This document shows, one piece after another, positions 1-6,942 of a stretch of 64,000 nucleotides of DNA; positions within the stretch are counted from its first letter, which is position 1; each line of letters begins with the position of its first letter. A program made the position numbers and the translations under genes. The notes beneath the pieces were generated by a model. It was not told the DNA's origin and ran no database searches. It saw nothing but the letters and a program-made list of their open reading frames with translations. Source of the stretch: a virus. Taxonomy: Duplodnaviria; Caudoviricetes. The DNA lies in the IMG/VR virus record IMGVR_UViG_3300011217_000001, positions 96,001 through 160,000 of that record. One strand, 5' to 3'.

Positions 1-1722
1 GCTAACCAGGACACGCGTCTGCTGTACGTCCCGGCTGAAATGGTGACCTACTTCGCCATCGACTACAACAAGTTCGGCATCGGTCGTTCGCTGCTGGAAG
101 ACACCAAGATCCTCGCAGGCATGCGCGCGATCTTGATGTTCGCCAACACGATGGGTTCGCTGCGTAACTCGGTGGGTCGTACGAAGCTGAACATCAAGCT
201 CGATGAACGTGACGATGATCCGGTGGACACCGTCGAGTTCATCATCGGCGAGTTCTCCAAGAACCGTCAGCAGGCTTACCCGCTGGGCGCTTCCAATCCG
301 TTGGACATCATCTCCTTCCTGCAGAACGCGGGTGTGGAAGTGGTGGTCAGTGGTAACGATGGCTACCCGAACACGGAAGTCAACGCAGAGGACTTCGCAG
401 CACAGGTCAACAAGCCGGATCTGGATCTGGACAACCTGCTGCGCAAGAACCACTCGCTGTCACTGGGTATCCCGGTGGAGATGGTGGACAACGCCCAGGG
501 TCCGGAGTTTGCGACCACGGCAGTGACCAACAACCTGCTGCTGACCAAGCGCGTGATGAAGACGCAGGAACAGTTCTGCCCGCATGTCACCGACTTCGTG
601 CAGAAGTACACCTACAACTCCGGCACGCTGCTGGATCGTCTGCGCAAGATCATCATCGACAACAAGGCCAAGCTGGGTGACGAGGTTCGTCAGTACATCG
701 CGTCCCACGGTCAGGAGCTGAACGTCGACAACGTGGTCAAGCTGTTCATTGATGCCATCATCTGTGAACTGCCGTCTCCGGACACGACCAAGGTCAAGGT
801 TCAGGTCGAGGCTTACAAGGAGTATCGCGAGGCGCTGGACGAAGTGCTGCCGGCCTACATCAGCAAGGAAATGTTCGATGCGGGCAATGACCAGAACACC
901 GACGTTGCCTCGGCCATCGAAGGACTGGTGGCGCTGACCAAGGCTCACTACCTGCGCCAGTACCTGCGTACCAACAACATCATGCCGGAACTGTTCGACC
1001 TGATGGAGCTGGACGAGAAGGGTGTTGGCAAGGTGGACATCTACGAGTCCTCGGCCGAGCACATGAAGGTGATGTACAAGGTCTTCGGCAAGTACATCGA
1101 CAAGATCCAGAAGCTTGTCGAGAAGCGTGAACCTGAAGACGAAACTCCGCCGGATGACACCCCGCCGGGTGGCGAGGAACCGGGCGCTGGCACCGACGAA
1201 TTCGGTATGGATACCGGAACCGAGGATAACCCTGACGAAACTCAGGATACCGGTGAGGAGGAGGAACAGCAGGAGGACGAAGGGCAGGAAGAAGAGGAGC
1301 AGGAGGAGGACACTGGTGAGGAGGAAGAGGCAGCGGATGATACCACCGATGCTGCTGACACCGGCGAAGCAGAGGAGGAAGCCTCCACTGAATCGATCGA
1401 CAACCTCTACCAGGAAGCCGACGATCGCACCTACTTCTACGATGCTGTGAGTCGTCCGATCAACCCGCTGCTGCGCGCTGCCCACAACATCGAGCCTGAA
1501 CTGATCGAAGTGAGGGACATGCGCTTCAACCTGCAGCAGGCTGGTTCGCTCTCCCCGCGTCTGGTCACTCGTGCCGACTACAGCTACCCGCTGATCGGCG
1601 TGCGTGAGGAAGATGGCCGTGTGGTCATCCTCGATGGCATGAAGCGTCTTGCTCATGCCAACACCGATGGCGCCTTCCGTCTGCCCGTCAAGCTCGTCTC
1701 GATGGAACAGGCCAAGCGTTAA
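1..1722 (+). CDS. Portal protein (phiKZ gp129-like), 5'-truncated by window edge, with acidic linker and C-terminal ParB/Srx-like domain
   Basis: Frame open from base 1 (ANQDTRLLYVPAEM...). YFAIDY..GIGRSLL segment and position next to the nvRNAP/capsid/helicase block match the phiKZ layout. C-terminal 'YPLIGV..DGRVVILDGMKRL' resembles ParB N-domain. Confidence 0.7.
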   Translation, partial: ANQDTRLLYVPAEMVTYFAIDYNKFGIGRSLLEDTKILAGMRAILMFANTMGSLRNSVGRTKLNIKLDERDDDPVDTVEFIIGEFSKNRQQAYPLGASNPLDIISFLQNAGVEVVVSGNDGYPNTEVNAEDFAAQVNKPDLDLDNLLRKNHSLSLGIPVEMVDNAQGPEFATTAVTNNLLLTKRVMKTQEQFCPHVTDFVQKYTYNSGTLLDRLRKIIIDNKAKLGDEVRQYIASHGQELNVDNVVKLFIDAIICELPSPDTTKVKVQVEAYKEYREALDEVLPAYISKEMFDAGNDQNTDVASAIEGLVALTKAHYLRQYLRTNNIMPELFDLMELDEKGVGKVDIYESSAEHMKVMYKVFGKYIDKIQKLVEKREPEDETPPDDTPPGGEEPGAGTDEFGMDTGTEDNPDETQDTGEEEEQQEDEGQEEEEQEEDTGEEEEAADDTTDAADTGEAEEEASTESIDNLYQEADDRTYFYDAVSRPINPLLRAAHNIEPELIEVRDMRFNLQQAGSLSPRLVTRADYSYPLIGVREEDGRVVILDGMKRLAHANTDGAFRLPVKLVSMEQAKR

Positions 1723-1730
1723 TAGGAACT

Positions 1731-1761
1731 GGGAGGCCCTTCGGGGCCTCCCTCTATGTCC
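1731..1761 (+). terminator. Hairpin plus TATGTC after portal gene
   Basis: GGGAGGCCC-TTCG-GGGCCTCCC then TCTATGTCC. Confidence 0.7.
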
Positions 1762-1853
1762 TGAAGACAAAAAAAAAGAAGACGGTAAAAAAGAGCCCAC
1801 CCCCCGGATAGGAGTGGGCTAAAGCGCCTATGTCACCAGGCGATATGAAGTTG

Positions 1854-2852
1854 TTAGGCGATCACGGTCTTGTCGTCGGTCAGATCAGCCAACGTCAGTT
1901 GCACGAACAGATGGTGCGCAACGTTGTTGGCGATACGACCATCATGTCCGCCGATCTCGCGCAGCTTGTTGGCAGCTGCAGTGAACTCGTTGGCCATCAG
2001 CTCATCGTACATGGCCTGGGTATGGAACGGAGTGAGGTCACTGTTGGAACCACTGACCAGATCGTTCAGGCTCAGCACGTACTTGCCGATGAGGTCATTG
2101 AGCAACTTGGTACGGCCTGCCAGCTTGTCGGACTTTGCCAACTTGGCAGGTTCTGCCACAGCACGAGCGATCAGGTCGTTGTAGTCGTCGACGTCGAGGA
2201 TGCTGTCCGGGTTGTCGGTATCCTCCTCGAAGAAGGAGTAGACCCAGTCACCCTCGGTACGGGAGTAGGTGATGGTGAAGCGGATGCCGTCGTTACGCAG
2301 CGCTTCGTTGAGCTTGACACGCAGCGGCAGGTTGATCTGGTCCAGCACGATGTCATGCATGCCACTCGGGACAGTGTAGACGGTCATGAAGAACGTAGTC
2401 TCACGTTCGCCCAGCTCGTCCTTCTTCTTGATCGTAATCGGAGTAATCAGGCCACTCTGGATGCGATCGACAACGCTGATCACGTTGTCATACAGCGGCT
2501 GCCAGTGGACTTCCAGCATGCCAAGGATGATCTTGGCCTGTTCGATGGACTGCACATCCGGATCGAGGTGAGCACGCATGTACAGGCCGGACAGGACCAG
2601 CTCCTGACGGATGGCGAAGGTTTCGTCTTCGGTGGGTTCGGTCTGGAACTCCACGGCAACGAATTCGCCAGGCAGACGCTCCTGCGCCTCCTCGGGACTG
2701 ACGACCAGACGGGTCTCCAGCTTGCGGTATTCCATCCGGTCGTTGAAATGGGCCAGACGGGCACCAATGGTGGCCATCAGGGGAGTACGATCGTAGACGG
2801 TGTTGGTATCGTCTTCGAGGGAGAACATCGGGGTATTCACGGACAACTCCAT
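1854..2852 (-). CDS. Hypothetical, possible virion head protein
   Basis: 332-aa ORF with phage-like codon use, SD (GGAG) near start, N-terminal S-L-E head-protease-type site. Confidence 0.65.
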   Translation of the reverse strand: MELSVNTPMFSLEDDTNTVYDRTPLMATIGARLAHFNDRMEYRKLETRLVVSPEEAQERLPGEFVAVEFQTEPTEDETFAIRQELVLSGLYMRAHLDPDVQSIEQAKIILGMLEVHWQPLYDNVISVVDRIQSGLITPITIKKKDELGERETTFFMTVYTVPSGMHDIVLDQINLPLRVKLNEALRNDGIRFTITYSRTEGDWVYSFFEEDTDNPDSILDVDDYNDLIARAVAEPAKLAKSDKLAGRTKLLNDLIGKYVLSLNDLVSGSNSDLTPFHTQAMYDELMANEFTAAANKLREIGGHDGRIANNVAHHLFVQLTLADLTDDKTVIA

Positions 2853-3088: not shown

Positions 3089-5293
3089 TCAGCCCATGAT
3101 GTCGACAGGCGACGGCGACAGCACGTAGTGGCTGTTGTTGAAGAAGCCGACCTGCAGATCGTACACCACGTTGTCCTCGGTCACGAGGTAGCGGTGGCAG
3201 AACTCACCACCCACGATCGCCGTGCGCTGAAGCAGACGATCCAGCGAGCTGTGCAGGGCCGGGTACAGCTTCTCCGACACCACACCGCCATTGACCAGGG
3301 ACGGACCCATGTCCGCACTGGACCAGCTCAACAGCGTCACCGACTGGCGACGAGCGAAGACCAGCCAATGCATGCCGGCGCCGGGCTTGCCGTACTCTTC
3401 GGTGTAACGAGCCAGCTCGTCATCCTTGAGCACGCGCATCACGGCGTTGATCACTTCATCGACCTTGGAGTTCAGCAGGTTGGCAGCCGCCACACCGACA
3501 GCCGGCTTGGCCTGCATCGTCTTCAGCAGATCACCGAAGTCGTCAGCTGCGGTATCGATGGTCCAGCTCAGACCCATCGAGTTCTTCAGGACGTAGTTGA
3601 TGCGGGCGGTCAGAGCATCGTTGAGCTGATGCCACAGACGGACCGGCACATCTTCCTGACCCTGCAGCTGGCTGAACTTGGCCAGTGCGGCCTGCACGGT
3701 CTTTTCCTTGCCGATGGCCAGGAACGTACCGATCAGGTTGGCCTCGGTCAAGTGCGGGGTGAGGATGTCGATGTAGAACTCCTTGGGAGTGTCTTCACCG
3801 TCGTTCTCACCGTCCACCGACACCACTTCGGTCATTGCGATGGCCTGAGCCACCGACATGGCCGGAACCGTGGTTGCAACGTCGCCGATATCCATGTCGG
3901 CGCCGAACACCAGCTGGTTGAAGGCGTCTTCATCACCCTCTTCCGCACCTTCCGGCTTGACCGGCTCGGTGCCGACCATCTTTTCGCCCTTCTTGTGCAT
4001 GTTGGCCACCAGATCGTAGCGGGGATCCACACGACCCTGGCGACGCTGATGCTGCGCCTTGGTCTTGAGGTTGTCGTTGGTTTCCAGGTCCAGGTAGTCC
4101 ATGTCTTCGTTGCGCTCTTTCACGATTTCCTCGACACGACCATCCGGATAGATCCGGTGGAACTTGACGAAGAGGTTGGGGTCGTAGACCTGGGCGAACG
4201 GCTGCTCAGGGCTGAAGGTCTTCTTGTAGGTGCTCAGCACTTCCGGAATGACGAAGGAACCGTCTTCCAGATCGACGCGGTCATAGGGACGACCATTGCG
4301 GATGTTCTCGCGCAGGGTTGCATCCTTGTCCGATTCTGCTGCGCTCACGGTACGACCGGCACTACGATCGAACAGCTTCGGCATCGCCGGACCCTTCTTG
4401 GCGTCAGCCTTGCGCTGTGCTTCGTGGTTCTGGTAGTTGCTACCACGCGGCGAGGCATGCAGCTCTTCTTCCACCGCATGCAGGTCGTTGCCAGAGACCT
4501 CTTCCACTGCACTGGAGGAGAACTCACGGCTGCGATCTTCGCGCGGAGTGTCGCGACGGCTACGGCGATCTTCACGATCTGCACGATCGTTCTTGCTGTT
4601 GCTGGCACGAACCGCGCCAGCCATGCCGCCCCGACGGGTTGCCGTTGCTTCTTCTTCTTCATCGCGACGACGCCCACCGCTGTCACGATAGCCACGGGTG
4701 CCGTTGCCATGGTAACCGCCATCTTCACGACCACGGCCACGACCGCCACCACGACGATCATCACGGTCATCGCGGTCACGGCCGCGACCACCACGGCGAC
4801 TGCCACGGTTGAAGTCTTCGATGTCAGCGATCAGATCACGGCCATCTTCCATGGCATCATCGAGTTCACGACCCATGCGACCATCGACGTACTCATCCAG
4901 CTCGCGGTACTTCTCCACGTACAACGCCATGGTGAAGCGCACCACGATCTTGGTAGCCTTGCGCAGGGCCTCGTCGGCCTCCATGCGCTCGCCTTCGTAG
5001 AAGAAGAAGAAGGCTTCGGCAACCGACCCGACCAGACGGTCGTAGTCTTCGTTGTCGAATTCCTGGTCGGCCATCATGTTGTACAGGAAGTTGCGCAGCT
5101 CGTGACGGCCGTACTCTTCCTGCAGCTCACGCAGCACCGTGCCGGCGATCAGCGGCAGGTCGCGCTCGATGGCGCCGGGGACTTGGATATTGGGGATGTA
5201 GCGGTCCGGGATGCGCTCGGGCAGTCCACGGACGAAATAGCCTTTGTCGACAAACTCCGGGTCGACGGGAAGGCGGGAACGAGAACGTGACAT
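3089..5293 (-). CDS. Conserved phiKZ-like hypothetical protein downstream of nvRNAP beta subunit, with R/G/D-rich disordered segment
   Basis: 734-aa ORF in the core block; low-complexity RRGGRGRDRDD tract. Confidence 0.75.
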   Translation of the reverse strand: MSRSRSRLPVDPEFVDKGYFVRGLPERIPDRYIPNIQVPGAIERDLPLIAGTVLRELQEEYGRHELRNFLYNMMADQEFDNEDYDRLVGSVAEAFFFFYEGERMEADEALRKATKIVVRFTMALYVEKYRELDEYVDGRMGRELDDAMEDGRDLIADIEDFNRGSRRGGRGRDRDDRDDRRGGGRGRGREDGGYHGNGTRGYRDSGGRRRDEEEEATATRRGGMAGAVRASNSKNDRADREDRRSRRDTPREDRSREFSSSAVEEVSGNDLHAVEEELHASPRGSNYQNHEAQRKADAKKGPAMPKLFDRSAGRTVSAAESDKDATLRENIRNGRPYDRVDLEDGSFVIPEVLSTYKKTFSPEQPFAQVYDPNLFVKFHRIYPDGRVEEIVKERNEDMDYLDLETNDNLKTKAQHQRRQGRVDPRYDLVANMHKKGEKMVGTEPVKPEGAEEGDEDAFNQLVFGADMDIGDVATTVPAMSVAQAIAMTEVVSVDGENDGEDTPKEFYIDILTPHLTEANLIGTFLAIGKEKTVQAALAKFSQLQGQEDVPVRLWHQLNDALTARINYVLKNSMGLSWTIDTAADDFGDLLKTMQAKPAVGVAAANLLNSKVDEVINAVMRVLKDDELARYTEEYGKPGAGMHWLVFARRQSVTLLSWSSADMGPSLVNGGVVSEKLYPALHSSLDRLLQRTAIVGGEFCHRYLVTEDNVVYDLQVGFFNNSHYVLSPSPVDIMG

Positions 5294-5319: not shown

Positions 5320-6942
5320 TTAACGCCGTTGGATTCTTTGTTGCACGTCATCCAGGATCGGACGAAGCGCGGGCGATCTTTCCACCAGTCCATCGTGGGA
5401 CAGGCGCACGTACACATTGGCGCGGTCCCGACCAGTGGGATCACTCTTAGACATATTTCGGAAACTACCCACCTCGGCCATGGAGGAGTGCAGCTGTCTT
5501 GCCGGGTCGCTCATGCTTCCCTTATTGCCACCACGACCACCCGTTGTACTGGTCTGGGCCACCAGACGCGAGGTAATCTTGAAGACCTTGTTGTCACCAG
5601 GGCACGTTACCGAAGTAACTTCGTTGTGCGTGGGCTGATTGAGCTGGAAGATCAGGTCAGTCCGCAGATTACGCCGAAGCTCGGCGTTGATCTCCTTGGG
5701 ATTCAAGATCGGCTTCTTCGAGTTGCGCAGGTTGAAGCTGAAGTTGTAGATCGCCTTGTTGATGTCAAAGACGATGTACCTCAGGATCACGAACTGCTTG
5801 CCGTACATGCTGGCAATGTCCTTTGCATTACCGGTCAGTCGGCCATGGAAGGTGTCGATCATGTGGAAGAACAGGTCATAGACCGTCTCCACGATCACTC
5901 CATCTTCCAGGAGCTTCTTGCGCGAGTTGCGATCCATGTAGGTGTCGAGCGATGCAAGGTGATCGTCCAACCGCTCCAGGATCTTACCCTCACTCTGGCC
6001 TTCGCCGAACAGGAAGATGCCGAGTGCGAGCTGCCATCGGGTGATGTCAAGTGCGAACTCCAGCGGGAACCGTTCGGGGAAGTGGTCGATGGCATAGAAG
6101 AAACTGCCGACCAGAATGTGCACAGCGTCCGAATAGTTCTCCCGAGGGATTGCCATGCGGATGTCCGAGACCGGATGACCGATCTTCAGACGAACCCCCT
6201 GAGGCTTGATCTGTGCCGAGGAGAAGATCACCCAGTCTTTCTTCGGGTAAGCCTCCTCAGTGATCGTTGCCGAGTCGCCCACGACGATGTTGGTGCCTCC
6301 GTACTGCTTGAAGGTCTCCTCAACGCCATAGCGACAGAACAGGTAGTGTGCCATCGTCGAGTTACCACGGATCGGCTGGCGGGCCAGTTCAGCTTTGCCC
6401 TCCGCCGTGTGGTTGTACAACGAGGCATGGATCAAGTGCGCGTCAACCTGAATGCTGTCACGCATGAAGGTGTAATACATTCGCTCGAAGGTGAGCTTGG
6501 CGCCTTGCAATGGAATGAAGATCGATGTGGCATTGATGCTGAATACCCTGTCCGCCAAAACAGGTGCTACTGCAAACAGCGAGCCACGCAGATACATCAG
6601 ACCGCCGTCCATGACGTTGGGCAGGAAGATGTACCTGGGGTCAAGAGGCTGACCCATGTAACTGAACATGTACTTGTTCAGGTGTGCGCTGGTCTTAGCA
6701 GTTTCCCAAGTCCTTTGGCTGTTGACGCGCTTGGTGATCTCCCTGAACGTCTCCCTCGGGGTACAGCGAACGAATCCGTCGTACTTCAGCCCTTCCGGGA
6801 AACCGGCGGCTGCCGTGCGGAAGATGTCATCCACCATCTTGTCCACATAGGGCACATGCTTGGTTGCCAGGCCGTTGGCAATGTCAGGGTTAAGTCGTGG
6901 AGTGACTTCCCTGAGCAGCCTGGAGTAATGTTTGTCCGTCAT
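5320..6942 (-). CDS. Non-virion RNA polymerase beta-like subunit, N-terminal part (phiKZ gp123-like)
   Basis: 540 aa; YIFLP..GGLMYLRGS and LHSSMAEVGS...PTGRDRANVY resemble RpoB N-terminal regions; synteny with capsid and helicase. Confidence 0.8.
   Translation of the reverse strand: MTDKHYSRLLREVTPRLNPDIANGLATKHVPYVDKMVDDIFRTAAAGFPEGLKYDGFVRCTPRETFREITKRVNSQRTWETAKTSAHLNKYMFSYMGQPLDPRYIFLPNVMDGGLMYLRGSLFAVAPVLADRVFSINATSIFIPLQGAKLTFERMYYTFMRDSIQVDAHLIHASLYNHTAEGKAELARQPIRGNSTMAHYLFCRYGVEETFKQYGGTNIVVGDSATITEEAYPKKDWVIFSSAQIKPQGVRLKIGHPVSDIRMAIPRENYSDAVHILVGSFFYAIDHFPERFPLEFALDITRWQLALGIFLFGEGQSEGKILERLDDHLASLDTYMDRNSRKKLLEDGVIVETVYDLFFHMIDTFHGRLTGNAKDIASMYGKQFVILRYIVFDINKAIYNFSFNLRNSKKPILNPKEINAELRRNLRTDLIFQLNQPTHNEVTSVTCPGDNKVFKITSRLVAQTSTTGGRGGNKGSMSDPARQLHSSMAEVGSFRNMSKSDPTGRDRANVYVRLSHDGLVERSPALRPILDDVQQRIQRR

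Follow-up and report, generated by a model that had tools for sequence, protein, structure and literature searches.

A portal gene extended by a ParB/sulfiredoxin-fold module

The window analysed here, a stretch of 64,000 nucleotides, comprises positions 96001-160000 of the 230,357-bp virus record IMGVR_UViG_3300011217_000001, which is about 99% complete and whose closest cultured relative is Xanthomonas phage Xoo-sp14, handled as a chimallivirus in an earlier study (bioRxiv 10.1101/2024.03.21.585822). Positions 1-1722 of the plus strand form a single open frame, which is the 3' portion of a longer open reading frame (ORF; L006:4585-7722, equal to G000:C1:94585-97722) whose start lies 1416 nt ahead of the window and which encodes a product of 1045 amino acids (aa), P0002, with 91% amino-acid identity to Xoo-sp14 across the portal-module gene. 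Based on the homologies described below, residues 1-847 are a portal of the phiKZ gp129 type, and the last 109 residues, 937-1045 (window 1393-1719, containing YPLIGV and DGRVVILDGMKRL), are a module predicted to fold as a ParB/sulfiredoxin (Srx) domain. An initial annotation made from the letters alone had proposed such a portal, joined to a ParB/Srx-like domain through an acidic linker ending in a head-protease site; its coordinates were exact and the elements it named (acidic tract, A-S-T-E-S and YPLIGV domain) were all read in the sequence as stated. Taken together, the observation was confirmed and the interpretation attached to it was partly supported. The elements of the gene within the window are:

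1-1125, plus strand: portal body (residues 473-847 of the 1045-aa ORF)
1126-1392, plus strand: acidic disordered C-terminal portal tail, serving as linker (residues 848-936)
1381-1395, plus strand: A-S-T-E-S, candidate prohead-protease site; the scissile bond would fall between 1392 and 1393
1393-1473, plus strand: N-terminal extension of the module, family-specific, with a near-invariant Y-Q-E and a beta-hairpin (residues 937-963)
1474-1719, plus strand: core of the ParB/sulfiredoxin-fold module (residues 964-1045)
1633-1647, plus strand: D-G-M-K-R in the translation, equivalent of the ParB/Srx phosphate-binding loop (family consensus D-G-x-H-R)
1720-1722, plus strand: stop codon of the portal-module ORF, from the ORF reading

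When P0002 was compared with the PDB using phmmer, it matched the phiKZ gp129 portal (9xpe_M, E = 3e-122, aligned over residues 60-203 and 256-937), the Goslar portal gp36 (11ed_J, E = 4e-107) and a third 12-chain virion protein (36za_o8, E = 2e-104), and it also matched phrog_3004 (E = 1e-121); the reading of the N-terminal part as a portal was thus upheld. Both gp129 and gp36 are dodecameric portals in published structures (PMC13250141 and bioRxiv 10.64898/2026.04.21.720040, respectively). The portals phiKZ gp129, Goslar gp36 and SPN3US gp81 (Chimalliviridae-type, with a T4 gp20-like fold) are homologous to P0002 over the whole portal body (wing, stem, clip and crown) and share its long N-terminal region and acidic tail, but they stop at this tail (at about 896-970 aa), whereas the portal here runs 109 residues further into the module. 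Relative to Xoo-sp14, the ratio of nonsynonymous to synonymous substitution rates (dN/dS) was 0.11 for the portal body, and the N-terminal 255 residues evolved faster (0.34).

The acidic tract had been taken for a special linker, a view that was not borne out. Residues 848-937 (90 aa) contain 29 Glu and 14 Asp, corresponding to 48% D+E, with 1% K+R and 2% hydrophobic residues. Among the 120 portal homologues retrieved, 116 lack the module, and in 104 of these 116 an acidic tail (at least 25% D+E over the last 60 aa) is present, at which the proteins end with a median length of 926 aa; the next relatives of the fused portals (about 50% identity, 920-937 aa) also terminate in an acidic tail. Given that the tail is widespread among non-fused homologues, the linker is not a new element, and by this sequence comparison the tract is the tail with which phiKZ-type portals natively end. 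phiKZ gp129 (896 aa) stops four residues past ...ESTES, which HMMER aligned with ...ASTES of P0002, an alignment that falls in low-complexity sequence and was not counted as evidence for a conserved site. The linker sequence differs by several in-frame indels among the four fused orthologues. A different appendage, a conserved basic peptide (~GGGALAEFLERxKRxRxDNH), was observed after the acidic tail in portals P0052, P0053, P0055, P0059, P0062 and P0076; given this second kind of appendage in another portal subgroup, the portal tail seems to be a recurrent attachment point.

The fold proposed for the last ~110 aa was recovered by several methods. AlphaFold2 with a 40-sequence alignment gave a model with a predicted local distance difference test (pLDDT) score of 89.5 and a predicted template modelling (TM) score of 0.80, in which the N-terminal extension forms strands at 17-20 and 23-26; a single-sequence run on residues 925-1045 was unusable (pLDDT 35.8). 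The top 50 Foldseek matches in the PDB were all ParB/Srx proteins (Noc, ParB, KorB, PadC, SbnI, SerK, sulfiredoxin, 1vk1 and Atu1540). With VIA-align, 12 of 48,161 chains reached Z>=2, at least 10 of them ParB/Srx proteins, and the best were Srx 6ky4 (Z 7.7, root-mean-square deviation 2.7 over 75 residues), SerK 5x0b (Z 7.1) and KorB (Z 6.7). Matches in BFVD were the RP31 'RNAP beta prime' protein (TM 0.84) and phage EL Q2Z106. When the profile of the homologue alignment described below (A2) was compared with the PDB, SbnI was matched at 4e-6, 9e-6 and 9e-6, and ParB 4umk at 0.08. On the basis of the model and the profile matches, the assignment of residues 937-1045 to the ParB/Srx fold is solid.

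The window module matched phrog_17560 (function unknown; E = 3.2e-9, profile positions 4-107 of 119). No Pfam family matched it at E<=1, including PF02195, and no NCBIfam model matched it, the SerK and SbnI models falling far below their cut-offs; family relatives gave sub-threshold matches to ParBc_2 (3 members), SerK or SbnI. A word-indexed homologue search with the module alone as query returned nothing, and an exhaustive HMMER search of 1.8 billion representatives returned 41 matches, of which 39 were credible. The two that were dropped, P0003 and P0026, are RTX or other repeat proteins that had matched through a Gly/Asp stretch. The alignment of the homologues, A2, delimits a module of ~110 aa with a near-invariant Y-Q-E near its start (Y10, E12), Trp49, R61, A-D-x-S-x-P and D-G-x-H-R-L (D85, G86, H88, R89). 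The window copy keeps Y, E, R61, D66, P70, D85, G86, R89 and L90, and is changed at W49 (to Phe) and H88 (to Lys), the latter replacement being found in 4/4 portal-fused copies. The arginine of D-G-M-K-R, R1021, aligns to the family-invariant R89 and to the DGVHR of SbnI.

The module is, as judged from its sequence, not a canonical ParB. The GERRxR CTP-binding box is absent from the module and from A2, and there is neither a helix-turn-helix (HTH) nor a C-terminal dimerisation domain, the protein stopping 24 residues past D-G-M-K-R. As the module has no GERRxR box and no HTH, nucleotide or DNA binding is only inferred. The nucleotide-binding motif that had been proposed is therefore upheld in part: D-G-M-K-R is present with its conserved Arg, but the His of DGxHR is replaced by Lys and the box and the HTH are missing. 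Compared with the CTP-switch N-domains of ParB, Noc and KorB, the fold is the same, but in addition to GERRxR, HTH and dimerisation domain a ParA partner is lacking. The best profile and structural matches are the free serine kinases SbnI and SerK and sulfiredoxin, which share a strand-loop-helix with D-G-x-H-R that binds nucleotide phosphates; however, ~50-80 residues align at 11-19% identity and the module has neither their C-terminal domains nor the Srx Cys. No substrate is inferable from these matches.

The fusion is genuine and not an assembly error. The ORF is uninterrupted also in Xoo-sp14 gp126, P0044, P0045 and P0046, and EEASTESI..LYQEADDR and the module are nearly invariant among the fused orthologues while the linkers vary. 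A 232,020-bp contig from two air-metagenome runs had no indel or stop across window 900-1722, and wastewater contigs bridging the linker-module junction (1060-1511) were 100% identical, again with no indel or stop, so that in every independent assembly examined the linker is free of stops and frameshifts; on this condition, as on the portal identity and the fold, the refuting check named in the initial annotation was decided in its favour. The air-metagenome strain carries seven substitutions (7 per kb, window 900-1900), three of them in the module and all three synonymous. Across the near-identical phage genomes in air and wastewater metagenomes one single-base insertion was seen, at window 1768, which is intergenic and 3' of the portal stop. 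An error in the GAG/GAA-rich tract that joined two genes, or translation of the module from an internal start, would be an alternative, and the tract is indeed low-complexity and GA-rich, with Shine-Dalgarno-like GAGGAGG strings. Given the same frame without indel in Xoo-sp14, in P0044-P0046, in the two air-metagenome assemblies and in the wastewater sequence, and no ATG, GTG or TTG from Met874 to the module, the probability of such an artefact is close to nil. A separate module from an internal start was rejected, with no ATG, GTG or TTG near the junction and some 17 nt separating the GAGGAGG from the closest codon that could be considered (ATC).

The dN/dS of the module against Xoo-sp14 was 0.14, close to that of the portal body, and the module is under purifying selection. 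When the hidden Markov model (HMM) of the module was run against the ~120 portals, it was found in P0002, P0044, P0045 and P0046 only, all at least 85% identical to each other; the fusion is, on these sequences, restricted to one narrow clade, in agreement with the view that it is not a standard portal feature. P0046 (788 aa) starts at a Leu aligned to residue 254, and its appearance as an N-terminally truncated portal is probably a gene-call artefact. No 'split' intermediate, with a module gene just 3' of the portal, was found in the nearest non-fused relative, where the downstream genes are on the opposite strand. In the literature searched no description of this module on phiKZ-type portals was found; otherwise the fusion is a variant of the known theme of ParB/Srx effectors anchored by portal or MuF domains.

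The module family and its other carriers

The phrog_17560 family is mostly stand-alone, with ~25 solo homologues found. phiKZ has no copy, RP12, EL and PA5oct have one each, and the phage of this record and Xoo-sp14 have two, one portal-fused and one canonical stand-alone. In this genome the stand-alone copy (120 aa, with YSE, STF, Trp and DGLHRL) lies outside the window on the minus strand (L008:1471-1833, about G000:C1:167254-167616), and the gene directly following it encodes a 407-aa homologue of thymidylate synthase (phrog_160, E = 5e-103). Another stand-alone member, P0024, lies two genes from a dCMP deaminase, and these ThyA and dCMP deaminase neighbours are a hint of a link to pyrimidine nucleotide metabolism. 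In four further stand-alone neighbourhoods (two phage-like contigs, one apparently bacterial, one too short to judge) there was no consistent structural context and there were no structural genes.

The same phrog_17560 domain is found in EL gp75 (stand-alone; UniProt Q2Z106, 'ParB/Sulfiredoxin domain-containing protein'), in PA5oct gp140 and in the module of the virion RNA polymerase (vRNAP) beta'N proteins of RP12, RP31 and FLC1-1B; members of the family matched the PHROG at E = 3e-9 to 7e-53 and their models agreed with TM 0.81-0.84. In RP12, RP31, FLC1-1B and FLC4-3B the module forms the C-terminus of a 664-aa protein, of which the first 490 residues (RP12 type) are an orthologue of phiKZ gp180 (37% identity, 3e-99). 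phiKZ gp180 is the vRNAP beta'N subunit and is annotated 'structural head protein', and the orthologue is labelled 'virion-associated RNA polymerase beta' subunit' in several records. PA5oct gp140, which also ends in the module, is annotated as a structural/virion protein by electrospray ionization tandem mass spectrometry (ESI-MS/MS). As in P0002, the module thus sits at the C-terminus of virion proteins in the RP12-like phages and in PA5oct, but the carrier differs and the fusion is independent. Further fusions were found in metagenomic proteins:

Phage_portal_3 + InPase + GNAT + module (1625 aa)
Phage_Mu_F + module + T7-like RNA polymerase (1518 aa)
module + Mu_F
LigD 3'-phosphoesterase + module (two proteins)
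module + Chlorella-virus-type DNA-ligase OB domain
module + GNAT
module + cell-wall hydrolase
ParBc_2 + module (P0023, 481 aa)

P0023 carries two different ParB/Srx domains in tandem and groups with the vRNAP-fused clade. In a maximum-likelihood tree the portal-fused and vRNAP-fused copies were placed in different, well-supported clades, which indicated that the two kinds of fusion arose independently. The portal-fused copies are the most divergent members of the family, with 23-36% identity to the others and with DGMKR and Phe in place of DGxHR and Trp49. An origin of the portal module by duplication of the stand-alone copy of the same genome was unsupported, the two being 25% identical and not sisters in the tree, in which the deep nodes are weakly supported.

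Fusions of this kind have the domain architecture of the polyvalent proteins described by Iyer, Burroughs, Anand, de Souza and Aravind in 2017 (PMC5512222), where the portal and MuF domains are taken to anchor in the head those effectors that are co-injected with the DNA. ParB/Srx domains of the DdrB-like family are among these effectors, and P1 DdrB is processed and packaged into the head (PMC5512222). As in those proteins, a head-incorporation domain (portal or MuF) is here combined with an effector domain that also occurs solo, and metagenomic relatives of the module sit in textbook examples of the class. The present case differs in having a single effector domain and a phiKZ-type portal as carrier that uses its own disordered tail, and release here would need the prohead protease and not an in-built zincin peptidase. 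Furthermore, the DdrB-like ParB is a distinct family in that study (with an extra helix carrying a conserved Tyr, and Asp/Asn at the end of strand 2), whereas the module here has no Pfam match.

Candidate cleavage and a possible role of the portal as a cargo carrier

A homologue of the head maturation protease is encoded in the genome (G000:C1:28702-29379, minus strand; 34% identity to phiKZ gp175, E = 2.5e-34). It was found using phiKZ gp175 as query, and the T4 gp21 protease family, PF03420, had no match in the genome. The head-protease motif is A-x-E in SPN3US, and analogous motifs in phiKZ and 201phi2-1 are likewise cut after Glu (PMC5694885, PMC10052503); S-T-E/S (the slash marking the bond in question) at the module boundary fits the wider [SAG]-x-E form. 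EEASTESI is invariant in the four orthologues beside the variable linker. The four closest non-fused portals (P0047-P0050) terminate exactly in A-A-E or A-T-E, [SAG]-x-E being the terminal residues in 5 of the 116 non-fused portals, and given that these nearest relatives end in A-x-E, a cut at S-T-E/S would recreate a native-like portal end. A-x-E is also found directly ahead of the module in 3/3 vRNAP fusions, as compared with ~16% of the other family members, and stand-alone homologues begin 1-8 residues ahead of the conserved Tyr. From these sequence features cleavage at the candidate site is plausible, at roughly even odds. Five further [SAG]-x-E motifs were observed in portal residues 1-305 (L006:4585-5500), at 181, 188, 207, 223 and 301 (e.g. 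V-A-T-E/S at 301), and these are candidates for the cleavage of a long N-terminal propeptide as in the SPN3US portal (ATE-161, AQE-254).

In the Goslar portal the C-terminal crown (residues 778-923 of 969) forms the upper end of the ring, towards the capsid (bioRxiv 10.64898/2026.04.21.720040), so that, by homology, C-terminal attachments should hang in the capsid lumen. Since the crown faces the capsid interior, the fusion would set 12 modules inside the head by the DNA end that leaves first. We suggest that the portal is a packaging vehicle for a nucleotide- or nucleic-acid-handling module, in the manner of a polyvalent effector, which is probably released by the protease and acts at or after DNA ejection; this reading is put forward tentatively, with slightly more doubt than confidence. 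The portal would be a covalent loading device that places twelve modules on the acidic tail in the prohead lumen, a location based on the Goslar and phiKZ portal structures. A prohead protease of the gp175 type probably frees the module by cutting the acidic tail, the best candidate for the site being the invariant S-T-E/S where tail and module meet. Such a cut would give a protein of 12.4 kDa that has the same starting point as the stand-alone homologues, with the expected neo-N-terminus SIDNLYQEADDR, and the modules would then leave with the leading DNA end.

The life history proposed here (entry into the prohead, a head-protease cut after Glu and delivery with the genome) is that of T4 internal proteins and Alt. 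T4 cargo, however, is directed by a short capsid-targeting sequence at the N-terminus that binds the scaffold core, whereas a covalent portal fusion would serve here; T4 gp20 itself is unprocessed (PMC5694885).

As to its activity, the module most likely works as a nucleotide-dependent enzyme whose targets are DNA ends or nucleotides, given that the phosphate loop is kept as D-G-M-K-R and given its kinase relatives and the fusions to DNA-end-processing enzymes, RNA polymerases and early effectors. NTP-dependent phosphotransfer or hydrolysis, or nicking at DNA ends, would be favoured because the nearest solved relatives are the SbnI/SerK kinases and because of the fusions to LigD phosphoesterase and DNA ligase. 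A more specific proposal is that the cut at S-T-E/S frees twelve phosphotransferase- or NTPase-like ParB/Srx enzymes from their portal carrier, to be ejected and to act early on the leading DNA end or on nucleotides; we regard this as rather unlikely. Possible roles of an ejected module in the early infection compartment would be end protection, end healing or the countering of host defence.

Several findings weigh against the portal as a carrier of released cargo. The stand-alone members are found mostly amid non-structural genes (ThyA, dCMP deaminase, helicase) and not head genes, so that the family is not intrinsically a virion component. The portal-fused clade has a very long stem (1.89 substitutions per site), and given this long branch and the loss of the near-invariant His and Trp49 the ancestral activity may be changed or lost. 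The portal cleavages reported for SPN3US, phiKZ and 201phi2-1 remove long N-terminal propeptides and no C-terminal cut has been reported (PMC10052503). In the 92-residue linker region there are 8 [SAG]-x-E motifs as compared with 6.2 +/- 1.8 in composition-preserving shuffles, which is not above chance; the head-protease site of the initial annotation therefore stands as a fit to the motif, but not as an excess of motifs. Many family members have a Glu at the second position ahead of the conserved Tyr, which accounts in part for the A-x-E of the vRNAP fusions, and the literature on Xoo-sp14 consists of a genome announcement only. The suggestion that the portal carries a nucleotide- or DNA-binding cargo is supported in so far as the same module was independently fused to other head-packaged proteins, but its binding is deduced.

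The main rival is that the module is an uncleaved accessory that stays on its 90-aa acidic leash above the crown, where it holds or senses the terminal DNA, gates the channel or contacts inner-body or ejection proteins. We consider this unlikely, though a serious contender: it would account for the lack of reported C-terminal portal cleavage in related phages and for a linker motif density at the chance level, the crown faces DNA, the ParB/Srx N-domains of ParB, Noc and KorB, which are nucleotide-switched DNA clamps, are among the structural matches, and the long branch and altered motif suggest neofunctionalisation after fusion. However, the module lacks the GERRxR box as well as an HTH or any other domain for DNA binding, a role specific to the portal cannot apply to the same module on vRNAP beta'N, MuF and T7-like RNA polymerase, and the linker is rich in protease-type motifs with the protease active in the same compartment. 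Proteolysis is instead central to the idea that the appendage, like a propeptide, serves assembly only, aiding prohead nucleation or recruitment before being cut and degraded or expelled ahead of DNA packaging. Heads of phiKZ-like phages do undergo extensive proteolysis in which long propeptides leave portal and capsid proteins, S-T-E/S is invariant at the boundary, and the cut would leave a portal end resembling the nearest non-fused relatives; but a folded, conserved, enzyme-like domain with stand-alone homologues in metabolic contexts would be an odd scaffold, and the related fusions are on proteins retained in the virion (phiKZ gp180, annotated as a structural head protein, and PA5oct gp140, by mass spectrometry), which makes this improbable.

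Finally, a stand-alone module gene might have been joined to the portal by loss of a stop codon and be degenerating without present function, as could be suggested by the replaced His and Trp and the long stem branch, with the canonical stand-alone copy in the same genome able to supply the function. This is very improbable given that the dN/dS is like that of the portal body, that the frame survives several in-frame linker indels in four lineages, that the module changes in the air-metagenome strain are synonymous only and that the signature K, R, D, G, P, Y and E are kept.

Phages of the phiKZ-like jumbo type need DNA and proteins delivered before the phage nucleus exists, and the identity and loading of those proteins are partly known. 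A fusion as described here would be a simple loading route, with cargo on the lumen-facing acidic portal tail. Given that on at least three occasions the module has been joined to proteins packaged in the head (two portal families, MuF and virion RNA polymerase), it is a strong candidate for an early-acting factor directed at DNA or nucleotides. If the portal indeed releases it, it would be the first ejected enzyme to be carried by a portal and set free by a protease, and a function would be given to an uncharacterised family of ParB/Srx proteins, one which jumbo phages have joined again and again to virion proteins, including the virion RNA polymerase. As Xoo-sp14 is cultured and its host is tractable in the laboratory, the predictions on cleavage, packaging and activity are directly testable, and the outcome would also bear on the purpose of the conserved acidic portal tail.

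Neighbouring genes

On the minus strand of the window, a 734-aa ORF (3089-5293) matched phrog_15010 and phrog_36323 (function unknown) and carries an RGG-box-like low-complexity tract of ~80 aa rich in Arg, Gly and Asp (RGGRGRDRDDRDDRRGGGRGRGRE...), which is unusual for a phage protein beside a portal. Three genes from the portal, also on the minus strand (5320-6942), a 540-aa ORF matched phrog_2943 'polymerase' (E = 1e-154) and probably encodes a subunit of the split RNA polymerases that are typical of phiKZ-like phages. Two genes that flank the portal and lie upstream of the window (L006:732-1781, plus strand, and L006:1841-4636, minus strand) share a paralogous virion-structural domain (phrog_1037/phrog_2935). 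Their equivalents in a relative (L010) carry DUF7941, a family that the Goslar preprint takes up when dealing with the presumed inner-body proteins of phiKZ (bioRxiv 10.64898/2026.04.21.720040).

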